From a virus (Duplodnaviria; Caudoviricetes), in IMG/VR virus record IMGVR_UViG_3300047403_000174, positions 1-26,166 of that record: a DNA stretch of 26,166 nucleotides; one strand, 5' to 3'. The position numbers and the translations under genes are program-made. This document shows positions 11,375 through 25,500 of the stretch, one piece after another. The notes below the pieces were generated by a model, which had not been told where the DNA came from, did no database searches, and worked only from the letters and a program-made list of their open reading frames with translations. Each line of letters starts with the position of its first letter. The stretch's first letter is position 1.

Positions 11375-12133
11375 ATGACCACTGTACTCGACTCCGATCT
11401 GGCGAATGGTGACACCAGCGCCGGCTCTTTCACTCCAAGCCAGTTCGTGCTGGGCGGCCCGCTTCTGACGCAGCCGGTCGTCGTGCTGACGGGAGAAAAC
11501 CTGCCGAAGTATGCTGCGATCGGGCTGAACACCGCCGGCAAGGCGGTCGCGTGGGACCCGACCGCTTTGGCCCGAACCGGCGACCGGTTCGCTACAGGCG
11601 TCTTGACCTTCGGCGGTCAACCGACGGCCGACGACACGCTGACCATCAATGGGCACGCGATCACCTTTAAGGCGAGCGGCGCGACCGGAGCGCAGGTCAA
11701 CATCGGCGGTACGGCAACGCTGACCGCCACGGCGGTTCTGACCTATCTGAACGCCAACACTTCGACGGTCGCCGTCACCGCTCGCCAGAACGGCACCCGG
11801 CTGACGCTGGAGGCCAATACGGCCGGGGCGGTTGGCAACGCTGTCACCCTCGCCAAGTCTGGGGACTACCCCACTCTATCCGCTGCGACCCTGACCGGAG
11901 GCGCCGATGACACTTCGGTCCCCGCGGCTGAGTCCACTTTGGCCGGGTTCCTGGCGCAAGCAGTGAACGCCACTTCGGCCGACGTATCGGGACCGGCCTT
12001 CATGGGCGGCACCTTCAACTACAACTTGATCGACTGGGGGGACCATGAACCCGCCTCGATCTACGCCGCACAGTCTGCGTGTGTCGGGACCAAGTTGACG
12101 GTCTCGGTGCCCGGCGAACTGGCTTCGGTCTGA
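11375..12133 (+). CDS. head decoration protein (gpD-like) with a 107-aa inserted domain
   Basis: Lies between protease and capsid genes. Flanks AVAWDP and [11 protein letters not shown] fit lambda-type decoration proteins; aa 73-179 are an insertion. Confidence 0.85.
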   Translation: [252 protein letters not shown]

Positions 12134-12143
12134 GGAGCGCACA

Positions 12144-22893: not shown

Positions 22894-23305
22894 AGTTGGA
22901 GGCGACGGGCAGGTAAAAGGGTATAAATACCTTTTTTCAATCCTGATGGGGTTGTGCCGCGGACCGGTCAACGAGGTGGTCGAGGTTCGAGCGGGGGATA
23001 GAACCGCTTGGACGGGCGCAGCGGACGACAATCGGACCGTTCAGATCAACTCCCGCAACCTGTTTGGAGGAGACGACAAAGAAGGAGGTCTTGTCGGCCA
23101 ACTGACTTTCCACCAAGGCGCCGCCAACCAAGTCTTGGAAGACGGGTTCGCCCGTGCGACTCTGACGTTCTCTGATCAGCCGAATGTCGGGGACACGGTT
23201 ACGATTGGGACTACGGTTTTTGAGTTCGTCCCTTGGGCGGCCCCGCCGCCAGACGGGACCAGTTCCGAAGGCAGCGGGCCGGACGGCGGCGAAGCGGAGG
23301 GGTAG
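22883..23305 (+). CDS. tail-tip hub / central fibre protein (gpJ-like), N-terminal segment
   Basis: MGGK...GYKYLFSILMGLCRGPVNE and NLFGGDDKEGG are typical N-terminal motifs. It ends at TAG 23303-23305 in the middle of an inserted domain. Confidence 0.75.
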   Translation: MGGKVGGDGQVKGYKYLFSILMGLCRGPVNEVVEVRAGDRTAWTGAADDNRTVQINSRNLFGGDDKEGGLVGQLTFHQGAANQVLEDGFARATLTFSDQPNVGDTVTIGTTVFEFVPWAAPPPDGTSSEGSGPDGGEAEG

Positions 23306-25500
23306 TGCCGAACATCGAAGTCATGCTGGGCCAGACGACAGTCGAAACGGCGCAAAATCTGCGCCGGTCGATGAACGTCGCGCAGGGGGAAACCAATGTC
23401 ATTGTCTCCGGAGACGTTCTGGTCCTGACATTGGAGTCGATGACGCAAGGCCCTGCTGGCGCGGGCACAGTGGTATCGGTGTCCGGCGCTCAGCCTGTTG
23501 CGTCCCATTCAACCCTGCAGAAAAACAGTCGAATTCGGACGTTGATAGGCGATCCAGTTTCAGAACTACGCGGCGTACTGACCGCGTTTTACGACGGCAC
23601 GATCGGGTCGAATAACCCCTACCCCAAACCGTGGGCGTTCCGGGTTCGACGGTGGTCGGCCGGGTGGCAGGGCGGAACGGCGTGGTACGCAAGCCGGGCG
23701 CTGATCTCCCTGTCCGGTGGGGCGATCAAAGCGATGAACCCCGCGCACATTGTGTACCAGTGTTTGACGGATCGCGCCTGGGGCCTCGGTGTGCCGGCTT
23801 CACAGTTGGATGAAGGGTCCTTCTACAGCGCGGCAAACACGCTGTACGCAGAGGGGTTCGGGCTATGTCTCGCCTGGAACCGACAAACGGACATCGCCAA
23901 GTTTCTCTCCGATGTAATTAATCATGTCGGGGGAGCATTCTACACGGATCGCGCAACCGGGAAATTCGTCCTCCGTTTGATTCGGTCCGATTACGACCCA
24001 AACGATCTGCCGCTGTTCGACTATAATTCTGGTCTGTTGTCGATTTCCGATGACGACAGCACCGCGGGCCAGACCAGCCACAACGAGGTGATCGTCAACT
24101 ATCACGACCCGATCAAAAACGAAGCGCGGTCTGTCCGAGTGCAAAATTTGGCGGCGATCCAGTCTTCAGGCGCCGTGGCCAGCGTGACCGTTGACTATCC
24201 TGGCATACCGACGGCCGACCTGGCGGCGCGTGCGGCGCAACGCGACCTCAGCGCCCAGACCGGAGGCCTTCGGCGGTTCAAGCTGACCTTCGACCGCCGA
24301 GGCCGGCAGATCGCACCCGGCAGCGTGTTCCGCATCAGCGTCCCTTCGCGCGGCATTTCCGACATGGTTATCCGCGCAGCGGCGATCGAAGACGGACGAA
24401 TGACCGCTCCCACGGTTACCGTGACAGGCCTTCAAGACGTGTTTGGACTGCCGGCCGTGGTCTACCTGGACGAAACAGAAGGCACCTGGATAGCGCCGAA
24501 CATCGGGGCCGCAGCGCCGGGAACAAGGCGCTGGAGAGAAGCGGACTACAGGGCCGTGGTCAGGCAACTCAGCCCGGCGGATTTAGCGGTCCTGGCGCCG
24601 GACACCGGTTTTGTGGCCATGGCCGTAATGCAGCCGACCCCTTTATCGCGGGATTACGTATTGGCAACCGCGGCCACGGGGGAGGAGTACGTCGAACGAG
24701 GCGCGTTCGCCTGGTGCCCCACTGGCCGACTGTCGTTTGCCCTTGGCGTTTACGCCGAGACGATGACGCTGCAAGAGGGGGCGTCAGGTCTGGATTTATT
24801 GGGGGTGGTGCCGTTCACGGCTTGGATTGGCAGCGAGACCGTGGCTGTTACGGCTTACGACGCGTCCACTCGGGAGTTCACCATTTCTCGCGGCGTGGTG
24901 GATACTGTGCCTCTTCCGCACAACGCAGGAACGAGAGTGTGGTTCGCCGACCCGGCAACTGGATCGGACGCGCGAGAGTACGCTTCCGGAGAGACAGTAC
25001 GGCTGAAGGCGTTGACACGATCCAGCGGGGCAAAACTCCCTTTGGAAGACGCCTTCGAGGACGAAGTTGATATCGTCGGCCGGCAGGGTCGGCCGTATCC
25101 TCCAGGCAACCTCCGTGTCAACGGCGAGCGGTTCGCCGAGGGCGCCACGGTAACCGGAGAGATCGAGATAACCTGGACGCATCGTGACCGCGTACTGCAA
25201 GCCGACGTGTTGGTGCCGCATGAAGATGCCAGTGTCGGGCCTGAAACAGGCACCACCTACACGATACGACTGTACGACGGTCCGACGTTGATCCGCACGG
25301 CTTCGTCGATATCCGGTACATCTTGGACCTACACCGCTACCATGGCCTTCGAGGACGGAGCCTTCTCGCCTAAGACGTGGGAACTGGAATCGGTTCGAGA
25401 CGGATTTGTATCCGCGCGCCGATATCGTTGGACCGTCGATCACGAGATTTTCGGCTATGGTTTTTCGTACGGCGTGAACTACGGGAGCGCAGGCGCATGA
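23305..25500 (+). CDS. tail-tip hub / central fibre protein (gpJ-like), C-terminal segment
   Basis: NPYPKPW, AMNPAHIVY, AANTLYAEGFG and RPYPPGN motifs, ending in GYGFSYG. The start is uncertain: either GTG 23305 (GGAGG at 23296-23300) or a -1 continuation of the upstream ORF. Confidence 0.8.
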   Translation: MPNIEVMLGQTTVETAQNLRRSMNVAQGETNVIVSGDVLVLTLESMTQGPAGAGTVVSVSGAQPVASHSTLQKNSRIRTLIGDPVSELRGVLTAFYDGTIGSNNPYPKPWAFRVRRWSAGWQGGTAWYASRALISLSGGAIKAMNPAHIVYQCLTDRAWGLGVPASQLDEGSFYSAANTLYAEGFGLCLAWNRQTDIAKFLSDVINHVGGAFYTDRATGKFVLRLIRSDYDPNDLPLFDYNSGLLSISDDDSTAGQTSHNEVIVNYHDPIKNEARSVRVQNLAAIQSSGAVASVTVDYPGIPTADLAARAAQRDLSAQTGGLRRFKLTFDRRGRQIAPGSVFRISVPSRGISDMVIRAAAIEDGRMTAPTVTVTGLQDVFGLPAVVYLDETEGTWIAPNIGAAAPGTRRWREADYRAVVRQLSPADLAVLAPDTGFVAMAVMQPTPLSRDYVLATAATGEEYVERGAFAWCPTGRLSFALGVYAETMTLQEGASGLDLLGVVPFTAWIGSETVAVTAYDASTREFTISRGVVDTVPLPHNAGTRVWFADPATGSDAREYASGETVRLKALTRSSGAKLPLEDAFEDEVDIVGRQGRPYPPGNLRVNGERFAEGATVTGEIEITWTHRDRVLQADVLVPHEDASVGPETGTTYTIRLYDGPTLIRTASSISGTSWTYTATMAFEDGAFSPKTWELESVRDGFVSARRYRWTVDHEIFGYGFSYGVNYGSAGA

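Follow-up and report, generated by a model that had tools for sequence, protein, structure and literature searches.

Why should one domain of roughly 107 amino acids (aa) recur in three unrelated virion proteins of a single phage? The question is raised by the Caudoviricetes record IMGVR_UViG_3300047403_000174, whose 26,166 nucleotides (nt), referred to below as the window, encode a head module resembling that of lambda and a tail module resembling that of Chi. The capsid protein has its closest cultured-phage match in Burkholderia phage AH2 (Casjensviridae) with 59.6% identity, the best of 449 records. The initial annotation had placed the domain inside the head decoration protein, the tail tube protein and the tail-tip hub, and had proposed a virion-wide display system. 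The part of this proposal that concerns head and tail held, as both carry what is probably a mobile accessory domain; the hub copy turned out to be split over two genes and is better read as a joint.

The two intact copies lie in the following genes and segments.

11375..12133, plus strand: head decoration gene of the lambda gpD / YSD1_16 type (252 aa), directly before the major capsid gene, with a match to the core fold
11591..11911, plus strand: copy 1 of the domain (decoration aa 73-179), an intact in-frame insert
15130..16215, plus strand: tail tube gene of the Chi/YSD1_22 type (phrog_807; 361 aa), E 2e-49 to 6xgr_A and 8vhx_G
15550..15870, plus strand: copy 2 of the domain (tube aa 141-247), an insert within outer domain 2 of the tube

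A recount agreed with the ungapped alignment reported for these segments, in which 71 of 107 residues are identical (207 of 321 nt; tblastn E 1e-41). Both copies were also confirmed as internal insertions with the host protein resuming on both sides. The tube of YSD1/Chi aligned to residues 5-134 and 239-360 of the window tube, skipping the insert, and YSD1_16 aligned to residues 10-68 and 173-222 of the decoration protein, again skipping the insert; this second alignment is weak (E 0.0016) and is backed by the fold match of the decoration core (Z 15.5 and root-mean-square deviation (rmsd) 1.4 Å over 105 residues against 6xgq_a; Z 12.3 against lambda 7vii_H). With a beta-tulip core and a position before the capsid gene, the host of copy 1 shows both features of the lambda gpD / YSD1_16 type. 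In AH2 the decorator gene measures 399 nt, gp57, at the tube position, 789 nt, and the hub is a single gene of 2370 nt; decorators without the insert were also detected (L024 and L047), that of L047 aligning across the insertion gap. The inserted segment is absent from the homologues in Chi, YSD1 and AH2.

In YSD1, domain 2 of the tube forms an external latch on the tube surface, according to the available text of PMC7385642. Since the tube insert interrupts this externally placed domain, the outward position put forward in the initial annotation is well founded for the tube copy, and the decoration copy would likewise face outward on the head. Copies 1 and 2 thus probably represent an accessory domain that is mobile, shared by head and tail and turned outward; it may amount to several hundred copies per particle.

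The annotation had linked the domain to Ig-like modules, a view that structure prediction contradicted. The model of the decoration protein, with a mean predicted local distance difference test (pLDDT) value of 84, comprised two parts, a gpD-type core and an alpha/beta insert; in ten-residue blocks the pLDDT was 71-96 over residues 71-180 and 91-96 over residues 81-140. In both models a 14-residue helix (H114-127; H42-55) was packed with the strands, so that the domain is not an all-beta sandwich. The insert resembled the external domains of contractile sheaths most closely, namely those of A-1(L) (residues 92-190; Z 10.2, rmsd 2.5, 91 aligned, and in a second comparison Z 10.4, rmsd 3.2, 91 aligned), Mu (Z 9.3, rmsd 2.5, 94 aligned), Milano (residues 95-203; Z 8.7, rmsd 2.6, 93 aligned) and PhiTE (Z 8.6-8.8). 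Residues 91-203 of the Milano protein are named the external sheath extension domain in the available text of PMC10811340, and the external domain of the PhiTE sheath is called D3 in that of PMC11972413. At the sequence level, a link to sheath inserts was found in phrog_165 (positions 103-199, E 3.7e-7) and weakly in Milano (E 0.013). Weaker fold matches comprised T7-like tail proteins (Z ~8-9), outer domains of flagellin and FliD (7-8.3), T4 gp11 (Z 6.9) and a chain of the crAss001 capsid map (6.7).

Searches for a family name gave little. None of 14 domain members matched an Ig-type Pfam family at E up to 1, and PF17481 (Phage_sheath_domII) was absent among the 13 families that these members matched at the same limit. 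As a Pfam name for the domain, only EACC1, Flagellin_IN (E 0.047), DUF1522 and ETX_MTX2 (E 0.28) came up, all below threshold and rejected as noise or weak leads. Foldseek with the domain-only model yielded no PDB match at E up to 0.001, and a search of the ESM Atlas returned unnamed viral clusters together with a lead below 0.9 to the crAss auxiliary capsid protein. The predicted fold is that of the external domain of contractile sheaths and not Ig-like.

The third copy differs in its gene structure, as set out below.

22883..23305, plus strand: hub gene A (140 aa), consisting of the N-terminal part of the hub (aa 1-88), the first three strands of the domain and an acidic Gly/Pro tail
23150..23230, plus strand: N-terminal half of copy 3 (gene A aa 90-116), found by profile match
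23231..23302, plus strand: C-terminal end of gene A, an acidic Gly/Pro tail bearing a conserved G-x-x-S-E-G motif and standing in place of the ASGATGA loop
23296..23307, plus strand: junction with a GGAGGGG ribosome-binding motif, the TAG of gene A overlapping the GTG of gene B (TAGTG)
23305..25500, plus strand: hub gene B (731 aa), the remainder of the domain followed by a gpJ-like hub
23314..23517, plus strand: C-terminal half of copy 3 (gene B aa 4-71), found by profile match

The similarity claimed at 23150-23520 is significant, with profile E-values of 6e-8 and 1.4e-4 for the two parts and hhalign probabilities of 96% and 95%. The claim of an in-frame insert in one protein did not hold: the earlier reading had joined two frames, ARATLTF... 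in the open reading frame (ORF) 22883-23305, which stops at the TAG at 23303-05, and EVMLGQ... in another frame that starts at GTG 23305. Gene A matched residues 7-85 of Chi 8vjh_A and 7-81 of JBD30 8rk3_o by profile, gene B matched residues 79-760 of the former (aa 69-708, E 5e-143) and 85-733 of the latter (aa 76-729), and in Chi and JBD30 the hub parts flanking the site form one chain. We take 8rk3_o to be the baseplate hub gp53 described in the available text of PMC11445458.

Comparison with relatives showed that the split is not confined to the window. Nine of 39 candidates were proteins of 140-153 aa ending in the tail, namely the query and eight stand-alone homologues of gene A with 142-153 aa; these stand-alone proteins share the domain strands and the acidic tail, in which G125, S128, E129 and G130 were invariant in 12 of 12 rows. 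The start of gene B was matched by three of 376 candidates of 402-1280 aa, all of which begin at the break, two of them with MPNIEV (P0101) and MVDV, and a fused form of genes A and B was found in none of the 376. Both hub parts were present at 50 loci: 44 were unbroken, four were split at the copy 3 site (the window, L087, and L103 and L104, which resemble each other), and two were split elsewhere without the domain. The latter are hub genes cut at the second insertion loop on single contigs (L088:3962-7383 and L109:1258-4169); the L088 cut, where the genes overlap at ATGA, falls in an insert that is unrelated to the domain and is possibly a second split-domain joint.

The phase of the split is -1 in the window and +1 in L087, L103 and L104, with GGAGGGG before the start codon each time, so that the conserved phase and slippery site of a programmed frameshift were not found among the relatives. 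The ribosome site at the junction was the strongest of 18 window starts scored (-10.0 kcal/mol). Between L087 and L103, codon changes were mainly synonymous in the A half (9 synonymous, 4 nonsynonymous) and in the B half (24 and 5), which shows purifying selection on both. A sequencing error at the junction was considered and rejected, as run X1 spans the junction in one ungapped contig (not an independent one) and the split recurs in relatives; run X2 covered only three short pieces and gave no evidence on the junction. A frameshift or a sequencing error is thus unlikely, because the cut is conserved in relatives, its phase differs, and gene B is equipped with a separate ribosome site and a separate start codon. 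Genes A and B would therefore be two separate, translationally coupled genes. The cut in copy 3 replaces the ASGATGA loop, which is the best-conserved and probably gene-converted segment of the intact copies, and for this reason a joint is a better interpretation of the hub copy than another display site of the same kind.

When residues 1-76 of gene B and 86-120 of gene A were folded together, the complex score was 0.61, compared to 0.01 for the best of three controls; the mark set for this score was reached by 116 of 157 solved pairs versus 2 of 215 mismatched pairs. The runs agreed in at least 94% of contacts with a partner pLDDT of at least 77, and the pairings were between A 92-95 and B 40-43, A 106-107 and B 57-59, and A 113-116 and B 4-6. 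The halves of copy 3 are thus predicted to refold together, with three gene A strands completing the gene B part.

A search with the insert matched 65 of 1,249 candidates of 138-441 aa, and the host proteins of the family comprised sheaths (phrog_205 and phrog_23), tubes (phrog_290 and phrog_807), cement proteins (phrog_563) and decorators. A survey of up to 10 kb on each side of the domain yielded 72 new viral loci, 58 of them distinct, with the domain in one gene at 50 and in two genes at eight; co-occurrence in several structural genes, for which the annotation had suggested looking, was thereby found, also in RcTitan (gp13 and tube). One of the eight, L206, was tried as a second split copy and rejected, since it reads as a single sheath gene frameshifted in one contig. 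Of the 32 non-redundant Chi-like loci that included both genes, five had both inserts, two the decorator insert only, none the tube insert only and 25 neither, in a sample that is biased by how the loci were found, contains kin that are not independent and includes one decorator-only locus with a truncated tube. All three sites are occupied in G001, and L014 carries copies in decorator and tube with an unbroken hub. Intact copies were also present in hubs at a second site (L030, L059/L060 and L106/L107). Two or three tandem or nested copies occur in decorators and cement proteins of P0015, P0020, P0029, P0034 and L172:632-2173, and the hub of L020:18887-20740 has a different insert of ~120 aa at the copy 3 site, unsplit.

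Among cultured phages, tblastn with the domain detected only Rhodobacter phages (16, 15 and 18 of 50,697 records), in a search limited by low-complexity filtering, and seven of the 18 matching records carry the domain in two places. In RcTitan one copy is found in gp13, whose gene is the second one past the capsid gene, and two are found in the tube, while the RcOceanus tube holds a single copy; the three RcTitan copies lie in proteins annotated as hypothetical (gp13 and gp17, L139:8559-9128 and 10535-12748). Outside phages, FlgE of Bradyrhizobium and the product of the gene after flgK matched the N-terminal half of the domain (55% over 38 aa). This first-half motif in both genes was seen in Bradyrhizobium viridifuturi (L220:5173-10849) and in similar Bradyrhizobium loci among L218-L232. 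Judged by sequence, the bacterial flagellum appears to re-use the motif in two surface proteins as well. The domain family is a widespread, essentially unnamed, non-Ig virion ornament that is absent from Pfam as a family.

How the copies came to share a sequence can be read in part from one patch.

11639..11728, plus strand: probable conversion patch in copy 1, with 82 of 90 nt identical to 15598-15687 and a perfect 33-mer at 11669-11701
15598..15687, plus strand: partner of the patch in copy 2, found by nucleotide comparison with copy 1

At conserved residues of copies 1 and 2, identical codons were used at 25 of 30 positions inside the patch versus 11 of 41 outside; the same measure gave 13 of 30 and 16 of 28 for orthologue pairs, both below the patch value. 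The scan value of the patch was reached in none of 20,000 permutations. In run X1, possibly the window's own source, the 33-mer core formed a separate contig at double depth (130 versus 63-68). The identity of the patch and the codon excess over orthologue pairs point to probable gene conversion between copies 1 and 2. In a tree of 63 rows and few columns, the decoration and tube copies of the window each clustered with their own orthologues, the two clusters being adjacent (97/78, not starred), and tube copies of the L014/L015 type clustered with decorators of the same lineage (99/92). A single clade of site-1 tube copies was rejected by the approximately unbiased (AU) test with p 0.023, on 34 of the 63 rows and for a group named after the first tree had been seen. 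We suggest that copying inside a genome spread the domain and that its copies were occasionally gene-converted.

The reading that we prefer, and to which we would give about an even chance, is that of an accessory coat combined with a clasp at the tail tip. A mobile domain with a predicted sheath-type fold is inserted into the decoration and tube proteins, and the intact inserts, perhaps several hundred per particle, probably form an outer coat, dispensable to the phage, which would serve weak attachment or the shielding of the particle; the third copy, cut between the hub genes, would refold from both proteins as a clasp. That the coat would be dispensable is suggested by analogy to the non-essential extensions of phage Bxb1. 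Several points weigh against this reading. Split-domain halves can pass the complex test through their likeness to intact solved folds, so that the score supports binding and falls short of showing it, and the model covered the domain halves alone, with the whole hub outside it. Hubs are also split at another site without the domain (L088, L109), and hub-core contacts may therefore be enough to hold the pieces. For the coat, 50 of the 58 distinct loci have no more than one gene with the domain, the strong conservation of ITF-ASGATG-QVN would be expected more for a fixed partner than for an adhesin that varies with the host, and the role in adhesion or shielding is putative.

One rival fares best, although we consider it rather unlikely: the domain might be a docking or self-associating platform, bound to fibres or to adjacent copies, that makes the particle stiffer or cross-braces it, with no part in host contact. 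The fold recurs in T7-like tail proteins (Z ~8), and the matched part of T7 gp12 docks fibres. It is seen at Z 6.9 in T4 gp11 too, an entry with the title 'interface between the baseplate and short tail fibers', but Z below 8 may mean no more than a common arrangement. The segment that is conserved is also the one homogenised by conversion, which fits a platform; no dedicated partner gene was seen, and many relatives carry the domain in the decorator only, both of which speak against it. Extra sheath domains have been proposed as stabilising in the available text of PMC9230969, where adhesion and stabilisation are both offered as hypotheses.

Somewhat less probable still is a near-neutral passenger, a domain with close termini that is tolerated in exposed loops and spread by recombination; on the hub, the split would have arisen inside the domain, and the halves would persist since their folding keeps the hub assembled. 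Against this stand the repeated gain of the domain by the decorator and the tube of separate lineages, in one case (L166/L203) at another place in the tube, and the count of five loci with both inserts and none with the tube insert only, again in a biased and non-independent sample. Such a passenger would account for the 25 of 32 non-redundant Chi-like loci without the domain in either gene, for the non-essential Bxb1 extensions in similar places and for hubs that accept other inserts and splits at the same loops.

Improbable to a further degree is a wider version of the clasp, in which the split copy makes the N-terminal piece of the hub a separately made and detachable part. The conserved acidic tail would then be a modification or trigger site that releases this piece at tip opening, and gene conversion would keep the intact copies similar, so that they cover the particle with a surface also present on flagellar hook proteins of alphaproteobacteria. 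We regard as slightly more doubtful yet a coat in which the domain copies the outer domain of flagellar proteins as a Ser/Thr-rich carrier or mimic of glycosylation. Its Ser and Thr content is 24-27%, compared to 14% in the capsid protein, but no glycosyltransferase family was matched among the 29 window proteins scanned in Pfam, the window being a partial genome. The Bradyrhizobium match to the N-terminal half (55% over 38 aa) and the outer domains of flagellin and FliD (Z 7-8.3) would agree with such a coat, yet the flagellar match is confined mainly to the first half and nearly all full-length relatives encountered are phage proteins. Very improbable is a hub made as one chain by programmed frameshifting at the junction, which would make the third copy a normal insert whose acidic loop is long. 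Although the G run before the stop (GAG GGG TAG) could slip -1 and the gap between ribosome motif and GTG is short, the relatives need +1 without such a slippery codon, the P0101 homologue has ATG at the same position, the gene A tails differ in length (142 to 154 aa) and none of the 376 candidates is fused.

The remainder of the window holds several features apart from the domain. Two DNA methyltransferase-like genes lie upstream of a helicase gene (1051-3876), and six tandem 51-nt units on the plus strand (1802-2209) encode a 17-aa repeat (HSPETKAKMSAAKMGRK-like), the ORF ending at 2183; this repeat resembles the NUMOD3 DNA-binding repeats of homing-endonuclease-type proteins. After the capsid gene, two small neighbouring genes (13177-13649) each match DUF7443 and constitute a tandem duplication. 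In 16217-16874, the tail chaperone gene precedes a gap of 222 nt in which the -1 frame stays open as far as the start of the tape-measure gene, probably the usual G/GT frameshift, as annotated in AH2. A tail-fibre gene with collagen repeats (25868-26166) is truncated by the end of the window.

Cultured Rhodobacter phages carry the domain on two proteins, which makes the ornament function testable by deletion in a host that is harmless, and the loops of decorator, tube and hub where insertions are tolerated mark display sites for phage engineering. Split hub genes are liable to be misannotated as frameshifted. If the split copy does refold from two chains, an inserted domain acting as a joint would allow an essential tail gene to undergo fission, and the pair of halves would provide a small natural split-domain tag.

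The sharing of one domain by head and tail is already known from Bxb1, where an accessory domain of ~90 aa is common to head and tail tube, 47% identical and non-essential, according to the available text of PMC8704799. As in Bxb1, a related domain sits, probably externally, on a head protein and the tail tube and is absent from relatives; in contrast to Bxb1, where the extensions are C-terminal, the copies here are internal inserts, the head host is the decorator and not the capsid protein, the two intact copies are 66% identical, and a third is divided between two genes. Fold matches to Bxb1 chains were weak (TMq 0.42-0.46 and E ~0.17, with TMq 0.42 for 9d93_Jb; tail-tip 9d93_Ma, Z 5.3). No description of the split hub copy, the triple arrangement or the spread of the family was found in the literature searched. 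Chi, YSD1, AH2 and the JBD30 hub share gene order and host proteins with the window but lack the insert at all three sites and have a hub of one chain, and the YSD1 tube carries a terminal Big-1 domain instead (available text of PMC7385642). RcTitan and RcSpartan (Titanvirus) and the RcOceanus group possess the same sequence family (phrog_28344), in other host proteins and another phage family and with no split copy seen; the text examined of PMC8601537 contains no mention of the domain in Rhodobacter phages. The sheath extension domains (Milano gp20 91-203, PhiTE D3, A-1(L) and Mu) share the predicted fold and the insertion topology (Z 8.6-10.4), whereas the window belongs to a non-contractile phage with the domain in three non-sheath proteins. 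In donor-strand complementation of chaperone-usher pili, a domain is completed by a strand from another chain. Copy 3 is predicted to be completed by another chain as well, but it is non-Ig, would receive three strands instead of one, and would form no polymer, the 1:1 join restoring one ancestral protein.

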